IMG/VR virus record: IMGVR_UViG_2579779077_000004
Origin: a virus
Taxonomy: Duplodnaviria > Heunggongvirae > Uroviricota > Caudoviricetes
Strand: one strand, 5' to 3'
DNA: 9,892 nt
The notes under the pieces were generated by a model. The model did not search any database, was not told where the DNA came from, and worked only from the letters and a program-made list of their open reading frames with translations. Position 1 is the first letter of the stretch; the number at the start of each line of letters is the position of its first letter. Below, one piece after another: positions 2 through 6,209 of the stretch. Made by a program: the position numbers and the translations under genes.

Positions 2-88
2 CATAACGTGCCCACCAGCAGGGAGAAAGCACGCGCCAATATTCAGAAGATGAAAAACATGATTAACGGATTCAGGGGCAAGAAATGA
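2..88 (+). CDS. Possible 3' end of an upstream gene running off the window edge (…VPTSREKARANIQKMKNMINGFRGKK*)
   Basis: Frame 2 is open from the window edge to TGA at 86-88, which overlaps the ATG at 85 in an ATGA arrangement. No start is visible and no family is recognised. Confidence 0.2.
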   Translation, partial: HNVPTSREKARANIQKMKNMINGFRGKK

Positions 89-1482
89 AAAGCGCACCGA
101 ACTTAAAAAAACAGCCTTACGACAAGATGACCGAAGTCATCATTTTTGCGGGTAGTGATGCGTGGGCACATGCGAAACAGTGGCAGGAACAGGACGGGCG
201 ACTGGCTGGCGATAATGTGCCTCCCATTGTGCTGGCTGATGATCAACTGGATGAACTGGCAGACCTGAGAATCATCGACGAGGGGCGCTATTGTGTCCGG
301 CTGTACAAGGCAGGCCACATCAGGCCATCAAATATTAATGCCATTGCGCACAAGCTGGCGGCGGCGGGCGTAACTGATGCGAATTATTACCCCGAAGGGA
401 TACACAGCCAGAAGCGGGAGAACTGGCGCGAATATCTGGAACGGGAGCTGGGGAAAAAGCCAGGGGAAGAACACCACCAGCGAAAAACCACGCTACCGAT
501 GAGCGTTGGATCTGCCGGATACGACACGCAATTAGATTACGTGGTAAAGGGGATTATTCCGGCATCGTCGCTATGCAGCATATACGGGGCAAGCGGTTCC
601 TATAAATCATTCCTTGCCGGATCGTTGGCGTGTCACGTTTCCACGGGCCGCCAGTGGGGAGGCCGCAGGGTGGCGCATGGCGCTGTTCTCTATGTGGTTG
701 GTGAAGGCGGTATCGGCGTTCCGCGTCGTGTAAAAGCCTGGGAGGTTGTGCACGGTGAGCAGGTGAAAAATCTGTATCTGGTAAACCGTCCCATATTTCC
801 GGCGGTCCCGCTTGATGTTGATGAAATGGTTATCGCTGCCCGTCAGGTGGAGCGGGAAACGGGTAAACCTGTACGCATGATTATTCTTGATACTCTGGCG
901 CGTTGCTTTGGTGGCAATGATGAAAATGATTCCCGTGATATGGGGGCGTTTATCCGTGGGTGTGACGAGCTTAAACGGCGCACAGGGGCCACGGTGCTGG
1001 TGGTTCACCATTCCGGCAAGGATGAGACGAAAGGCGCGCGTGGTTCCAGTGCATTTCGTGCTTCGCTGGATGCTGAATACCGGATACGCAGGGAGGACGC
1101 AGGAAGCGAAGCGCTGGTTATCTCATGCACCAAAATGAAGGACGCGGAGGAACTCAAAGAGGCTGCCTATGACTTACGCGTGGTGGAGCTGTTTACCGAC
1201 GCTGACGGGGAGTTAATCACGTCGCTGGTGGTGGTGGATAAGCCGCGTCCTCCCGTTGAACTGGAGCGCATCGAGGAGGCAGGCAACAAGACGGAAAACC
1301 ATACCGCACTATGGGGGTGCATCCGGTCACGCACACAGCACGGCGACAAGTGCACGATCCCGCTGTTACGTGATGACATGAAAAAACTGGGGTATGAAAT
1401 GAAAAACTTCCGGCGCTGGCTGTACAAGCTGGAAAAAGATGGGGTTATTCGTATCGATGGGGATGATGTAGCGCCGCTATAA
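85..1482 (+). CDS. Replication initiator / helicase-like protein: RecA-fold ATPase (AAA_25/RepA-DnaB-like) with an unassigned N-terminal domain and a probable C-terminal winged-helix DNA-binding domain
   Basis: 465-aa ORF with AGGGG about 8 nt upstream of the ATG. P-loop-like motif GASGSYKS, Walker-B-like hydrophobic stretch ending in D (VRMIILDTLAR), and the RecA/DnaB-like motif LVVHHSGKDETKG. The C-terminal 70 aa (…MKKLGYEMKNFRRWLYKLEKDGVIRIDG…) looks like a winged helix. An iteron array follows immediately downstream. Confidence 0.8.
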   Translation: MKSAPNLKKQPYDKMTEVIIFAGSDAWAHAKQWQEQDGRLAGDNVPPIVLADDQLDELADLRIIDEGRYCVRLYKAGHIRPSNINAIAHKLAAAGVTDANYYPEGIHSQKRENWREYLERELGKKPGEEHHQRKTTLPMSVGSAGYDTQLDYVVKGIIPASSLCSIYGASGSYKSFLAGSLACHVSTGRQWGGRRVAHGAVLYVVGEGGIGVPRRVKAWEVVHGEQVKNLYLVNRPIFPAVPLDVDEMVIAARQVERETGKPVRMIILDTLARCFGGNDENDSRDMGAFIRGCDELKRRTGATVLVVHHSGKDETKGARGSSAFRASLDAEYRIRREDAGSEALVISCTKMKDAEELKEAAYDLRVVELFTDADGELITSLVVVDKPRPPVELERIEEAGNKTENHTALWGCIRSRTQHGDKCTIPLLRDDMKKLGYEMKNFRRWLYKLEKDGVIRIDGDDVAPL

Positions 1483-1677
1483 AAGTGAGGAGCAAAAGCG
1501 AGGGGGGTAGAAAGAGGGCCAAAATTAGCCTGCTCTCCCTCACTTTTCGACCTGTATACATCCTCAAAAGTGAGGGGTAAAAAAATACTTATGAAACACA
1601 CACATAGAAAAACCAAAAATCCCAACTGCGACGAAGTGAGACGCTTGAAAAAGTGAGGCGAAAAAGTGAGAGGTTGC
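1482..1677. repeat. Iteron array, putative origin of replication
   Basis: Direct copies of AAAGTGAG(G/A) at 1482-1490, 1566-1576, 1649-1658 and 1661-1673; degenerate copies at 1494-1503 (AAAGCGAGG), 1511-1519 (AAAGAGGGC) and 1633-1641 (GAAGTGAGA); one inverted copy at 1537-1547 (CCCTCACTTTT). An AT-rich stretch sits between them at 1578-1620. The array lies directly 3' of the rep gene. Confidence 0.6.
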
Positions 1678-1682
1678 GAGAA

Positions 1683-1934
1683 ATGACCCAAAAACGCAGA
1701 GACAGAACAGAGCCGAAATATAAGGCGTTAGATATGGCTGAACTGGCTTTAAAGGTGGCAATCAGAACGATAGACCGCCACGCGGGGGAAGGATACGCGA
1801 AAGCACATCCCGAACTGATAAGCGCATTCATGACCACGACGGCGGCAAATTTTGCCACGCTGACAGAACGGGAGATTGCCGAAGCGGAACAGGTAACAAC
1901 AATCAACGTTAAAACCGGAGAGGTGGAATCATGA
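1683..1934 (+). CDS. Hypothetical small protein (83 aa)
   Basis: ATG at 1683 with GAGAGG 10-16 nt upstream. The ORF track gives an upstream in-frame start at 1653, but that lies inside the iterons with no RBS. The TGA stop overlaps the next ATG (ATGA at 1931-1934). No recognisable family. Confidence 0.45.
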   Translation: MTQKRRDRTEPKYKALDMAELALKVAIRTIDRHAGEGYAKAHPELISAFMTTTAANFATLTEREIAEAEQVTTINVKTGEVES

Positions 1935-2236
1935 GCGAACCAAAATTTGGTGAAAAATTTTACAAGCACAACGGACGGATCACGATTCTGCAAATAAGCG
2001 CAGCTACACCAGGCTGGTGGGTTGAAACAGACGAAGGATCCTCACCCGTGGCATCATGGGCGCTTTGTGTGCTTAGTTACCCTGACCGCGATGTGTATCA
2101 GGATATTCTGCCTGTGATATCCACTGACAAAGGCATGAAACCCGTAGACATCAAAAACATGGGGTTTCAGTGCGTAATGCTCACTGAAAAAATGATGGAA
2201 GAGATGAAAAAGAACAATGCCGGATCGCTTCACTGA
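1931..2236 (+). CDS. Hypothetical protein (101 aa)
   Basis: Strong RBS GAGAGGTGG 5-13 nt upstream of the ATG at 1931, which is translationally coupled to the preceding ORF. No recognisable family. Confidence 0.55.
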   Translation: MSEPKFGEKFYKHNGRITILQISAATPGWWVETDEGSSPVASWALCVLSYPDRDVYQDILPVISTDKGMKPVDIKNMGFQCVMLTEKMMEEMKKNNAGSLH

Positions 2237-2245
2237 GGTGGCAAT

Positions 2246-2656
2246 ATGACAGCACAAATTGCAGCTTACGGGCGGCTGGTGGACGACCCGCAGGTAAAAC
2301 AGAGCAGCAAGGGCACACCGATGACTCTGGCGCGTATGGCGGTATCGTTGCCATGCAGCCAGGCACATGACGGACAGGCGACGTTATGGTTATCGGTTAT
2401 CGCATTTGGCAAACAGGCCGATTTCCTGGCTAAACATCAAAAAGGCGATGTTGCCAGCGTATCCGGCACGATGCAGGTAAGCCAGTGGACCGGACAGAAC
2501 GGGGAAACGCGGCGGGGGTATCAGGTTATTGCAGACAGCGTAATCAGTGCCCGCGCGGCACGTCCAGGCGGGAACAGACGCAAAACCACAGGCACACAGG
2601 GTAATCAGCCACCAGCGGGAGGCGATGACCCTTACGGTGACGGTATTCCGTTCTGA
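2246..2656 (+). CDS. ssb: Single-stranded DNA-binding protein (short SSB, OB fold)
   Basis: RBS GAGGTGG upstream. The N-terminal stretch IAAYGRLVDDPQV resembles the SSB motif (…VGNLGQDPEV…), there is a conserved W…FGK…A core, a Gly/Pro/Gln-rich linker, and a C-terminal acidic tail ending DDPYGDGIPF (compare the canonical SSB end …DDDIPF). Confidence 0.75.
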   Translation: MTAQIAAYGRLVDDPQVKQSSKGTPMTLARMAVSLPCSQAHDGQATLWLSVIAFGKQADFLAKHQKGDVASVSGTMQVSQWTGQNGETRRGYQVIADSVISARAARPGGNRRKTTGTQGNQPPAGGDDPYGDGIPF

Positions 2657-2666
2657 GGGGGTGACG

Positions 2667-2939
2667 ATGGCACATGACCGCATAGCGGAGGAACTCGAGG
2701 CAAAAGGCTTTTACCGGAGGGCGGCGGCGCGATGGGGTGAAGTCATGCAACTGGTGGAGACAGACAAGGAACGGCATCAGGTTACGATGCGACGGCTGGA
2801 ATGTTCCAGGAAGGCACAGAGGCCACCGGAGCCGCCGGATAACTTCGGAGACCTGAGAAAGGCAGTCGATCGCACTTATGCTGAAATGGGTATGGATGGT
2901 GTAAGCGATGAAATATGGCGTAATTACACAGACAGCTAA
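2667..2939 (+). CDS. PerC-family transcriptional regulator-like protein (90 aa)
   Basis: ATG at 2667 with GAGGGGG 6-12 nt upstream. The ORF-track start at 2547 would overlap ssb with no RBS. The N-terminal motif AEELEAKGFYRRAAARWGEVM matches my recollection of the PerC/Pch signature; this is a family-level call only. Confidence 0.55.
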   Translation: MAHDRIAEELEAKGFYRRAAARWGEVMQLVETDKERHQVTMRRLECSRKAQRPPEPPDNFGDLRKAVDRTYAEMGMDGVSDEIWRNYTDS

Positions 2940-2944
2940 TCAAC

Positions 2945-2966
2945 AGCCGGAGCAATCCGGCTTTTT
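2945..2966 (+). terminator. Rho-independent terminator after the PerC-like gene
   Basis: Stem AGCCGGA (2945-2951), GCAA tetraloop, TCCGGCT (2956-2962), followed by a T-run (2962-2966, then TTATTTTTT). Confidence 0.55.
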
Positions 2967-2986
2967 GTTATTTTTTGTAAATTATT

Positions 2987-3033
2987 TGTTCGTGGTTGTT
3001 CCACGTTGTTCACTGAGCGGATCGGCATATTTT
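2987..3033 (+). promoter_or_regulatory. Candidate promoter/operator for the head operon: three phased TTGTTC repeats and a sigma70-like -35/-10
   Basis: TTGTTC at 2987-2992, 2997-3002 and 3006-3011, spaced about one helical turn apart. The last one (-35-like) is followed after 16 nt by TATTTT at 3028-3033 (-10-like). A 5-bp inverted repeat CGTGG/CCACG lies at 2991-3005. Confidence 0.3.
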
Positions 3034-3087
3034 ACCCGAACTGAATCATGATTATTCTCGCCTGTGGTGCCAGGACGCTGGGGCCAC

Positions 3088-3135
3088 TTTCCCGCCTGTT
3101 AATGTGCTCGCCAATATTCATTACCAGGCGGGAAA
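3088..3135. promoter_or_regulatory. Perfect 11-bp inverted repeat in the capsid-gene leader (operator or RNA stem-loop)
   Basis: TTTCCCGCCTG (3088-3098) and CAGGCGGGAAA (3125-3135) are exact reverse complements separated by 26 nt. They are nested inside a 9-bp long-range inverted repeat, CCAGGACGC (3070-3078) and GCGTCCTGG (3187-3195). Confidence 0.35.
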
Positions 3136-3226
3136 ACGATCGGTGCGATTACTGATTTCCTTATGAAAAACGGTTGAGTGTTTGCCGCGTCCTGGAGTTC
3201 CTTACTTAACCCCAGGACTTTTTTTT

Positions 3227-4384
3227 ATGCCGAGAATAATCGAATTACGCCAGCAGAAAACCGCCATTAAAAATCAGATGCGCGACATGCTGGAGAACGC
3301 TGAAAAAGAAAACCGCAGTCTTAACGATGCTGAGGGCGCAAAATTTGACGAATTACGCGCTAAAGCTGAATCCCTCGATAAAGACATTTCCCGCCTTGAA
3401 GCCATTGCAGACGAAGAGCGCAGCAAGCCAGGTAAAAGCAGTCAGACCACTGACCCCGCAGAACTACGAAACTACATTCTGACGGGTGAAACCCGCGCAT
3501 TAAGTACAGGCGTTCCCGCTGATGGTGGTTATACCGTTATCCCCGAACTGAACACCGAAATCATGCGAATGCTGGCGGATGAATCCACCATGCGCCGCAT
3601 CTGTACCGTGAAGAAAATCAGCAGCAACGAGTTTAAGCAGCTTGTTTCCGCTGGCGGTGCGACCGTTAACCACGGTGAAGAGGGTAAGGCACGCGAACAG
3701 ACCAGCACCCCGCAGATTAACGAGGTGAGCATTAAGCTGTATCCGGTCTATGCGTACCCGCGCACCACACAGGAAATCGTGGATTTTTCCGATGTGGACA
3801 TCCTTTCATGGCTGACGGGTGAGATTGGCGACACCTTCACGGAAACCGAAGAAAGCGATCTGGTTGTGGGCGACGGTGACAAAAAAGCAAAAGGTTTTTT
3901 ATCCGTACCCCGTGCAGAGAAGAACGACAAAGAGCGTGATTTTGGTACGTTGCAGGTAATTAAACCTTCCGAATCTCTGGCGTGGACATCTGCGGACCCG
4001 CTGATCGACCTGAAATTTGCATTACGTAAAAAATACCGCAAAAACGCGGTCTGGGTGGTTAACTCCACGACGGCGGCAAAACTTCAGAAGGTGAAGAACG
4101 CGAACGGTGATTACATCTGGCGCGACCGTTTACAGGCGGGTGATCCTGATACGTTGCTGGGCCTTCCGGTCGAATATCTGGAGTTTATGCCTGATAACGT
4201 TATTGCCCTGGGTGACTTCAAACGCGGTTACTACATTGTTGATCACGAAACAGGTGTTCGCACCAGACCGGACAACCTCACAGAGCCGGGCTTCATCAAA
4301 ATTTTCACGCAGAAATATTTAGGCGGTGGCGTGGTGGATTCGAACGCGATCAAGATTCTGGAACTGCCACAGGACGACGATTAA
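3227..4384 (+). CDS. Major capsid protein, HK97 fold, with N-terminal coiled-coil delta (scaffolding) domain
   Basis: 385 aa from the ATG at 3227 (the ORF track begins at an upstream TTG at 3182). The N-terminus has a charged coiled-coil heptad pattern (IIELRQQKTAIKNQMRDMLENAEKENRSL…DELRAKAESLDKDISRLEAI), followed by a mature domain with HK97-MCP-like motifs (GGYTVIPEL…, …LLGLPVEY…). Confidence 0.9.
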   Translation: MPRIIELRQQKTAIKNQMRDMLENAEKENRSLNDAEGAKFDELRAKAESLDKDISRLEAIADEERSKPGKSSQTTDPAELRNYILTGETRALSTGVPADGGYTVIPELNTEIMRMLADESTMRRICTVKKISSNEFKQLVSAGGATVNHGEEGKAREQTSTPQINEVSIKLYPVYAYPRTTQEIVDFSDVDILSWLTGEIGDTFTETEESDLVVGDGDKKAKGFLSVPRAEKNDKERDFGTLQVIKPSESLAWTSADPLIDLKFALRKKYRKNAVWVVNSTTAAKLQKVKNANGDYIWRDRLQAGDPDTLLGLPVEYLEFMPDNVIALGDFKRGYYIVDHETGVRTRPDNLTEPGFIKIFTQKYLGGGVVDSNAIKILELPQDDD

Positions 4385-4394
4385 CAGCATACAG

Positions 4395-4423
4395 AAGGGG
4401 CTTAAAAGCCCCTTTAGTGTTTT
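4395..4423 (+). terminator. Hairpin with U-rich tail between capsid and protease genes (partial terminator or RNA stability element)
   Basis: Stem AAGGGGC (4395-4401), loop TTAAAA, stem GCCCCTT (4408-4414), then TAGTGTTTT. Confidence 0.4.
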
Positions 4424-4997: not shown

Positions 4998-6209
4998 ATG
5001 TGGCCTTTCAGAAGAAAAAAAGAGCAGCGCAGCATGACGCTTGATGAATTTATGGCGCTGGCTGGCACATCGAACACGGGGGCGGGTGAGTACGTATCAT
5101 CGGGGACAGCGGAATCACTGCCCGCCGTCATGAACGCCGTGACGGTCATTTCTGAGGCGGTGGCTACCATGCCGTGTTACCTGTACCTGGTACGCAATGA
5201 GAAGGGGAAGGAGGCCCGCGAGTGGCTTGATTCTCATCCGGTCGATCACATCCTCAACGAGCGCCCGAACGCGTGGCAGACTCCCTACCAGTTTAAGCGA
5301 ATGATGATCCGCCACTGCCTGTTAAACGGTAATGCTTATGCGGTGATTCAGTGGGGGCGTGATGGTTTTCCGGTGGCTTTACATCCTTACCCGCCGCAGT
5401 CGGTGAACGTGGAGCAGACAGGCGAACACAACTGGCGCTACTGCATCACTGACGCTTACACCGGAAACACCCGCAACTATTTACCGTGGGAGGTACTTCA
5501 CCTTCGTTACTCCACGGATGACGGCTTTATGGGGCGCTCACCTGTAACCATCTGCCGCGAATCGCTGGGGCTTGGGCTGGCCCAACAACGCCACGGCGCG
5601 AGCGTGATGCGTGATGGCATGATGGCGGCAGGGGTTATCACGTCAGGCGAATGGCTGGACGGCGTGAAGGGCAAACAGGCATTAGCCGCACTGGAACGCT
5701 ACAAAGGGGCCAGAAACGCCGGAAAAACGCCCATCCTTGAAGGGGGGATGAGCTATCAGCAGCTGGGCATGAGTAATCAGGATGCTGAATGGCTGGCCTC
5801 CCGTCGCTTCACCATTGAAGACATCGCCCGAATGTTCAACGTCTCGCCGATTTTTCTGCAGGAATACAGCAACAGCACCTACAGCAATTTCAGCGAGGCA
5901 AGCCGCGCATTTCTCACCATGACGATGCGCCCGTGGCTGGCGAACTTTGAGCAGCAGATAAAAAACGCCTTGCTGGTGGTCTCGCCTGTACCTGGTATCC
6001 GGTATCAGGTGGAGTTTGACAGCGCGGACCTGTTACGGGCCACACCTGGCGAACGCTTTGCCACCTATGAGCGCGGCATCAAATCCGGCGTAATGTGTCC
6101 GAACGAAGCCCGCGAACGTGAAGGACTGTCACCGCGTGATGGTGGTGATGAGTTCAGCCAGGCATGGAAACAGGAAGTAAAAATCAGCGAGGGAGAAAAA
6201 CCGGAATGA
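4998..6209 (+). CDS. Portal protein, HK97 family
   Basis: 403-aa ORF with GCGGGGG RBS upstream of the ATG at 4998. Size and sequence character fit HK97-type portals. It begins 2 nt after the protease stop. Confidence 0.88.
   Translation: MWPFRRKKEQRSMTLDEFMALAGTSNTGAGEYVSSGTAESLPAVMNAVTVISEAVATMPCYLYLVRNEKGKEAREWLDSHPVDHILNERPNAWQTPYQFKRMMIRHCLLNGNAYAVIQWGRDGFPVALHPYPPQSVNVEQTGEHNWRYCITDAYTGNTRNYLPWEVLHLRYSTDDGFMGRSPVTICRESLGLGLAQQRHGASVMRDGMMAAGVITSGEWLDGVKGKQALAALERYKGARNAGKTPILEGGMSYQQLGMSNQDAEWLASRRFTIEDIARMFNVSPIFLQEYSNSTYSNFSEASRAFLTMTMRPWLANFEQQIKNALLVVSPVPGIRYQVEFDSADLLRATPGERFATYERGIKSGVMCPNEAREREGLSPRDGGDEFSQAWKQEVKISEGEKPE

Follow-up and report, generated by a model that had tools for sequence, protein, structure and literature searches.

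What do two small genes, placed between the replication origin (ori) and the single-stranded DNA-binding protein (SSB) gene of a phage satellite, contribute to the element that carries them? The question is raised by positions 1,683 to 2,236 of IMG/VR virus record IMGVR_UViG_2579779077_000004, assigned to Caudoviricetes, whose stretch of 9,892 nucleotides (nt) is referred to below as the window. An earlier reading of the letters alone (the sequence-only reading) had placed here two translationally coupled open reading frames (ORFs), named ORF A and ORF B in this study, and had listed helper interference, replication accessory functions and defence or anti-defence among their conceivable roles. 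The answer has parts of unequal strength. It is highly probable that the locus follows the genomic logic of a capsid-forming phage-inducible chromosomal island (cf-PICI) in which both frames are coding, ORF A is fixed behind the origin and tied to ssb, and ORF B is a cassette. That the two proteins are accessory or adaptor proteins of the satellite's replication and single-stranded DNA (ssDNA) module is possible, and clearly short of probable; the explanation taken as a whole is tentative, at a little less than an even chance.

The sequence-only reading had suspected a phage satellite, and the window is indeed part of a cf-PICI of Escherichia coli. Over its full length it shares 98.1% identity with an island in the chromosome of E. 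coli FHI_NMBU_10 (NZ_CP046539.1), which lies between roxA and phoQ and carries int, a helix-turn-helix (HTH)/AlpA-like gene, rep and packaging genes. Near-identical islands have int and alpA on one side and host genes on the other, and contain no tail genes. Judged by the window ORFs, their Pfam and PHROG matches and the NZ_CP046539.1 island, the element possesses what defines a cf-PICI, namely a rep-ori module and its own capsid, protease, portal, connector, HNH, TerS and TerL genes, with int and alpA at its left end and neither tail nor lysis genes. In elements almost identical to it, RefSeq gives names to the genes for capsid, protease, portal, connector, HNH and terminase. The gene order runs from a RepA-family helicase through an iteron region of ~200 nt to ORF A, ORF B, ssb, a perC-family gene and the packaging genes (HK97-type capsid, prohead protease, portal, head-closure and connector genes, HNH, TerS and TerL), in agreement with the published organisation of cf-PICIs (10.1101/2022.09.08.507074). 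Sequence related to the window is present in 1809 of 5426 complete E. coli genomes, and PICIs and cf-PICIs are widespread drivers of gene transfer in this species, Shiga toxin-producing E. coli (STEC) included.

Both frames were found to be maintained as genes. The coordinates of the sequence-only reading, with 83 and 101 amino acids (aa) and an ATGA stop-start overlap, proved right: RefSeq annotates both coding sequences identically in near-identical elements, as 'hypothetical protein' entries (WP_086257680.1 and WP_001536839.1 for A, WP_086257674.1 and WP_001294165.1 for B). ORF length is no evidence here, because the window has many ORFs of 80-130 aa in other frames; antisense ORFs occur at 1589-1993 and 2054-2368. 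Frame +1 alone is free of stops throughout the 10 diverged alleles of A and the 6 of the B family. The antisense frame over ORF A contains stops in two of the compared loci (L016 and L017), and stops in diverged alleles rule out both antisense ORFs as true genes. The ratio of non-synonymous to synonymous substitution (dN/dS) is 0.13-0.46 for ORF A; for ORF B, comparison with alleles whose proteins are 84% and 65% identical gives 0.32-0.36, and comparison between distant relatives 0.18-0.34. Comparative coding evidence, with only frame +1 open and dN/dS below 1 for both, speaks against the possibility left by the sequence-only reading, that these frames are not translated. The C-terminal half of ORF A is near-invariant, with proportions of synonymous (pS) and non-synonymous (pN) differences of 0.24 and 0.05; since synonymous sites vary there, the constraint acts at the protein level, and a DNA-level cis-element is ruled out as the cause of the invariant 3' half. 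The last five codons are additionally constrained by the Shine-Dalgarno (SD) sequence of the downstream gene. From these alignments we take ORF A and ORF B to be genuine protein-coding genes under purifying selection.

The neighbours of A, B and their relatives were classified in 215 sequences, comprising the window and 214 loci from annotated E. coli genomes, homologue-carrying assemblies and IMG/VR scans that used A, B and ssb as seeds. These represent 131 distinct contexts of 1.2 kb; junction counts were made on the first 135 sequences. ORF A is always the first gene after the origin, with a post-replicase gap of 174-372 nt and a single outlier of 33 nt. It stands behind three unrelated replicases (RepA/AAA_25, D5-type primase-helicase and DUF927) and ahead of differing packaging modules, and A, B and the distant B relatives described below (B') were each found with all three replicase types among the 131 contexts. 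The sequence-only reading had treated A and B as a two-gene unit. This was not supported: A regularly pairs with ssb, which follows it directly in 91 of the 131 contexts, and ORF B DNA occurs in 82 of the 5426 E. coli genomes (81 of them at an identity of at least 95%) versus 1613, or ~30%, for ORF A. The same 4-nt ATGA overlap joins A to ssb at 67 of 69 junctions and, as an overlap of -4, A to B at 34 of 39. In the reverse test, with loci seeded by the satellite ssb, ORF A was found upstream in 78 of 80; one of the two exceptions starts at a contig edge and the other has an insertion of the IS66 family within ORF A. The latter locus (L170, ~800-2960) has its IS66-family element directly upstream of ssb and is the sole ssb-seeded locus that has upstream context and no intact A. 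The SSBs encoded by these satellites are 66-76% identical and fall into a single clade, in which the OB domain is conserved and the tip reads ...D(I/L)PF. ORF A is a conserved, satellite-restricted gene with ssb as its regular partner.

Features of the locus are collected in Table 1.

Table 1. Annotated features in and around the interval between the replication gene and the packaging operon (positions in the window)
Feature	Position	Strand	Family or evidence	Remarks
Replication initiator/helicase, RepA family	85..1482	+	AAA_25, E 2e-43	Upstream of ori
Satellite replication origin	1481..1680	+		Iterons around A/T-rich stretch
ORF A, 83 aa	1683..1934	+	PHROG 1231	ATG 1683, TGA 1932-1934; first cistron after ori
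A/B junction	1917..1934	+	SD GGAGAGGTGG within last ORF A codons, with ATGA stop/start overlap (1931-1934)	Same junction opens straight into ssb in most elements
315-nt insertion relative to elements with A joined to ssb	1930..2244	+	Alignment with L005	Ends in second copy of the ribosome-binding site (GAGGTGGCAAT)
ORF B, 101 aa	1931..2236	+	PHROG 27268	ATG 1931, TGA 2234-2236; rare cassette gene; GC 0.46
Satellite ssb, 136 aa	2246..2656	+	Pfam SSB PF00436	C-terminal tip ...DGIPF; usual downstream partner of ORF A
PerC-family regulator gene	2667..2939	+	PF06069, E 2e-44	Final gene of the putative transcription unit
Terminator-like GC hairpin and T-run	2945..2962	+	Consensus scan	Directly after perC; divides rep-ssb-perC unit from packaging operon

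ORF B is an optional 315-nt cassette inserted precisely at the junction of A and ssb. In alignment with L005, an element without B whose A is 99% identical, B is an exact insert between ...GGAGAGGTGGAAT and ATGAC... of the A-ssb junction, and the duplicate ribosome-binding site (RBS) at the end of the insert now serves ssb, 9 nt downstream. The GC content of ORF B is lower than that of rep, ssb and perC (0.55-0.58). The window and L007, an element with an unrelated replicase of the D5 type and an A 84% identical, share 98-100% identity only over ~1850-2260 (76-88% in ssb), and their B genes are two synonymous changes apart. Since the identity is confined to this interval, the B cassette is exchanged by recombination in the conserved flanks, and alignment of these elements indicates that B moves among unrelated PICI backbones through sequence in the 3' half of A and at the 5' end of ssb. 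A B gene of 65% identity has the same A-B-ssb order in L023, a classical PICI, and in the allele of 84% identity the stop of A and the start of B are 2 nt apart, with no overlap. The A-ssb junction was also considered as a general insertion hotspot and rejected as such, B being the only cassette found there in the 131 contexts. Many of the E. coli carriers of ORF B (hits H107-H166) belong to STEC or bovine-associated serotypes (O103:H2, O111:H11, O145:H28, O121 and a few O157:H7), and in most O157:H7 genomes ORF A is joined straight to ssb.

Neither protein belongs to a family recognised by Pfam, NCBIfam or PADLOC, as the sequence-only reading had it by eye, and neither has a match among PDB sequences; both are, however, full-length members of uncharacterised PHROG families. 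ORF A matches PHROG 1231 at an E value of 3.1e-51, its residues 1-83 aligning with all 83 positions of the profile, and ORF B matches PHROG 27268 at 7.6e-70, its residues 1-101 aligning with all 104. Profile searching and structure prediction, to which the sequence-only reading had pointed, thus gave these families and predicted folds for the monomers, and no curated family or PDB match. The PHROG and RefSeq entries assign no function; what is added here is how the genes are deployed, with confinement to satellites, a set place behind the origin, linkage to ssb and, for B, the character of a cassette. Conservation across related elements differs between the two, A being conserved in satellites and B belonging to a rare and tiny family.

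Relatives of ORF A number 177 clusters at 90% identity and 572 by profile search, in which the best 120 of the 572 distant relatives were inspected; among the matches listed, almost all are from Escherichia/Shigella and a few from Citrobacter. Residues 1-35 are basic and variable, and residues 36-78 are almost invariant (core GEGYAKxHPELISAFMTTAAANFATLTEREIAEAEQVTTINVK), the invariant positions being mainly hydrophobic or small. The AlphaFold2 (AF2) model is a small bundle of three helices with a disordered C-terminus, residues 74-83 forming a low-confidence coil. A paralogue of 51% identity (PHROG 1231, E 1.5e-23) occurs in classical, non-capsid-forming PICIs (L018 2411-2665; L023 3660-3914), where it lies far downstream, overlaps a gene of 203-220 aa by 4 nt and stands upstream of TerS-like genes. 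A phage-like region of a Methylovulum metagenome-assembled genome (L004) encodes a 76-aa protein with 58% identity to ORF A over residues 17-54 and the motif GEGYAxxHPELISAFM; its gene (5956-6186) lies near that of a 994-aa large terminase with an apparent intein-like interruption (1421-4405, minus strand) and a D5-type primase-helicase.

The family of ORF B is small, with 8 clusters in a word-indexed search and 7 representatives at E up to 0.001 among 1.84 billion sequences in an exhaustive HMMER search. The Trp- and Cys-containing core picked out by the sequence-only reading is the conserved part of the family, in which G28, W29, W30, S38, P39, A41, W43, A44, C46, L60, P61, G68, M69 and P71 are invariant, and the Met/Lys/Glu-rich tail is its most variable part. 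This set of Gly, Trp, Pro, Ala, Ser, Leu and Met with one Cys does not look like a catalytic one, to judge from the residues conserved. The predicted fold is an SH3/Tudor-like beta-barrel, its strands falling within residues 16-83, with a helix (86-94) at the C-terminus; candidates for comparison are known small beta-barrels of SH3b/GW and Tudor-like type, namely InlB GW domain (1m9s), PlyPy (5udm), AtlE R2ab (7kwi), CdnL (2lwj) and PcrA/UvrD Tudor (5dma). A similarity of B to TAL effectors was discarded as an artefact: the whole-sequence E value of 1e-16 sums 23 weak matches of ~20 residues (LPVL..G..P), each with E above 600.

Distant relatives of B (P0130-P0132), 36-46% identical to it, are first after the origin in PICIs and cf-PICIs that lack A; one locus has the order B'-A-ssb. 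Those of L009 and L010 match PHROG 27268 at E values of ~1e-9 to 5e-10. They are strongly acidic, with an isoelectric point of ~4.5 and a net charge of ~-10, and overlap the next gene by 4-20 nt, which is ssb, a gene with a ProQ/FinO domain or a 65-aa gene. The ProQ/FinO-domain gene replaces or joins ssb behind the origin in L009 (6344-6874), L013 (6341-6871), L023 (969-1493) and L045. The slot thus contains a small gene and a gene for a nucleic-acid-binding protein, with perC after them.

The position between an origin and ssb, as originally read, was supported. Repeat families D2/D3 and inverted repeats I2-I5 mark out the origin, in which six iterons AAAAGTGAG(G) lie at 1481, 1538 (inverted), 1566, 1634, 1649 and 1662 and form two groups flanking an A/T-rich stretch; this layout agrees with the origin of Gram-negative PICIs (PMC6092414). 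The gap from Rep to the next gene is 174-405 nt in nearly all related loci, with outliers of 33 and 484 nt. The ribosome-binding sites had been called reasonable, and SD-like sequences do precede both genes: GAGAGG (1667-1672) lies 10 nt ahead of the start of ORF A, and GGAGAGGTGG (1917-1926) lies 4 nt ahead of that of ORF B. The last iteron, AAAAGTGAGAGG (1662-1673), overlaps the SD of ORF A, so that Rep bound at the origin could affect expression of the genes downstream.

A consensus scan, the only means used, found no sigma-70-like promoter in 1300-3300. Together with the terminator-like hairpin after perC, this makes a single transcript rep-ori-A-B-ssb-perC the simplest reading, and A and B would most simply be part of the rep operon. 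The translational coupling of A and B asserted by the sequence-only reading stands in part: the ATGA overlap is present, and the start of B is unsequestered, so that independent initiation at its own strong SD is equally possible. No significant local RNA structure was found at the three gene starts (A, B and ssb), and coupling is for that reason a deduction from the overlap. No Rfam family matched anywhere in the window, and on these two results the idea that the region contains a structured RNA or a member of a known RNA family was rejected.

No match to the A or B protein was found by tblastn in 50,697 phage genomes, and both families are, on this search, restricted to phage satellites. A defence role, one of those initially listed, was set aside: with E values of up to 1 allowed, no PADLOC-DB profile matched A, its paralogue, B, two of the distant relatives of B or the neighbouring 65-aa protein, and the defence hotspot described for cf-PICIs is located elsewhere, on the downstream side of the packaging operon (10.1101/2025.02.11.637232). 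Searching the literature with the protein accessions and with PICI gene names gave no study of these genes. In the cf-PICI studies, mutations were made in the packaging module only, and functional work on PICIs has centred on induction (AlpA), Rep-ori and packaging.

Among the functions that had been listed, 'replication accessory' fits the context best. We propose that A, as a helical bundle whose N-terminal tail is basic, and B, as an SH3/Tudor-like barrel, would be small binding proteins without enzymatic activity, produced together with the satellite's nucleic-acid-binding protein. They may serve as accessory or adaptor subunits of the satellite's module for replication and ssDNA handling, for example by modulating or recruiting the satellite SSB, or a conserved component of the host replisome, during the replication burst that follows induction. 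A would then be the regular part and B a supplement to it or a substitute for it, and both would tune or improve replication while being dispensable for its initiation. A more specific version, in which A and the satellite-specific SSB clade form a two-component ssDNA-handling module exclusive to phage satellites, and the B family provides an alternative or additional adaptor that is elsewhere combined with a ProQ/FinO-like protein, is unlikely. If true, it would mean that enterobacterial PICIs hold a hitherto unrecognised, satellite-exclusive layer of replication or nucleic-acid control which is independent of the replicase and could plausibly act on a conserved host target.

An analogy to such an arrangement, and an analogy only, is the leading region of conjugative plasmids (ssb-psiB-ardA), in which a mobile element's own SSB also stands beside small non-enzymatic proteins; these act on host proteins of DNA metabolism or defence. 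No homology to this region was detected, and A and B differ from it in belonging to an induction-dependent rep operon, PICIs entering cells as double-stranded DNA.

Several points weigh against a role as replication accessories. In EcCICFT073, rep and ori alone suffice for autonomous replication, from which it follows that A is not essential for initiation, and the genes that follow the origin in PICIs are classically interference genes (both PMC6092414). The linkage to ssb could stem from shared regulation or translation in place of physical contact, and a few elements (L008 and L085) have ORF A and no ssb. The paralogue of A in a late, TerS-like region is a misfit for a purely replicative role. 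The operon was deduced from a consensus scan only, and the structure models are moderate, with predicted local distance difference test (pLDDT) scores of 71 and 77, that of B having been built from 6 sequences only.

The first of the competing explanations takes A, B or both for effectors directed at the helper or the host, with functions in interference, host takeover or counter-defence, and adjacency to ssb as a matter of expression timing only. We judge it rather unlikely. It draws on the post-ori location just mentioned and on the absence of both satellite-restricted families from phages; in position and orientation behind rep-ori, small size and satellite restriction, A and B are alike to the interference genes of classical PICIs and Staphylococcus aureus pathogenicity islands (SaPIs), of which ppi, cpm and rpp are examples located after the origin. 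A is distinguished from genes of that type by being tied to ssb and not to packaging genes. The paralogue adjoining TerS-like genes in classical PICIs counts in favour of an effector. The acidity of the distant B relatives also speaks for it, as many small inhibitor or mimic proteins are acidic.

B further resembles the morons of phages, being a discrete insert between adjacent operon genes with deviant GC content and a patchy distribution, near-identical in divergent backbones, horizontally exchanged and centred on STEC lineages. A promoter and a terminator of its own are usual in a classical moron, whereas B, which lacks both, is spliced into a translational junction with a duplicated RBS. 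The slot, moreover, is no general hotspot. The conservation of A is a further argument against an effector, its C-terminal half being near-invariant across very different PICIs with dN/dS ~0.2; it looks like the pattern of a core gene, unlike that of an arms-race gene. Profile searches of PDB chains with A and B gave weak or artefactual matches only and no solved PICI interference protein, of which Rpp is presumably present in the PDB; this lack of a match to solved structures again counts against effectors. Finally, the prototype cf-PICI leaves helper reproduction unreduced, and A is conserved in cf-PICIs reported as harmless to the helper (10.1101/2022.09.08.507074).

A could instead be a small regulator, binding DNA or RNA or associated with RNA polymerase, of ssb, perC or the late packaging operon, with B as its modulator; this we consider decidedly improbable. 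The basic N-terminal tail of A, noise-level Tudor matches, an operon shared with a PerC-family regulator and the overlap of the last iteron with the SD of A, through which Rep binding could gate the operon, would all suit such a role. So would the best PDB match of A, in which the C-terminal stretch LTEREIAEAEQVTTINVK aligns weakly with the cyclin-repeat HTH of TFIIB; at an E value of 0.31, however, this match is not significant. Thirteen members of the family matched no Pfam HTH family up to an E value of 10 and the AF2 model has no C-terminal helix-turn-helix, and the HTH/TFIIB-like reading was rejected accordingly. The packaging modules that accompany A are unrelated to one another, and perC may be present or absent, so that no conserved target operon is evident.

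The proposal that A and B are mainly leader cistrons, whose translation opens or feeds the start of downstream ssb (or proQ) and whose proteins are of little importance, takes up the overlap of 4-20 nt between the first post-ori gene (A or B') and the next in nearly all loci and the downstream SD within the last codons of A, but it is very improbable, given dN/dS well below 1, many synonymous changes in the invariant half of A, family conservation that reaches distant elements at 36-58% identity, and no RNA structure tying the downstream start to upstream translation.

The two genes overturn no current view: they are small, uncharacterised members of an element that is already familiar, and the role proposed for them comes from context. 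Nothing known accounts for them, but there is no sign either of a system of a new kind in place of satellite accessory genes of a replication operon. With its wide presence in E. coli genomes and its tie to ssb, ORF A is a gene whose role would fill a gap in the satellite life cycle, and ORF B shows an operon accepting a cassette at a translational junction.

Two minor observations concern neighbouring genes. In L001 (NZ_CM129862.1, 9764-9982; compare window 2246-2939), a deletion has fused ~11 codons from the beginning of ssb with the 3' portion of perC, and A and B are kept while ssb is lost; the fusion is annotated by RefSeq as a PerC-family regulator. For the major capsid ORF of the window, the mechanical start is a TTG at 3182, giving 400 aa, versus a RefSeq product of 385 aa in near-identical elements, corresponding to an ATG at ~3227.

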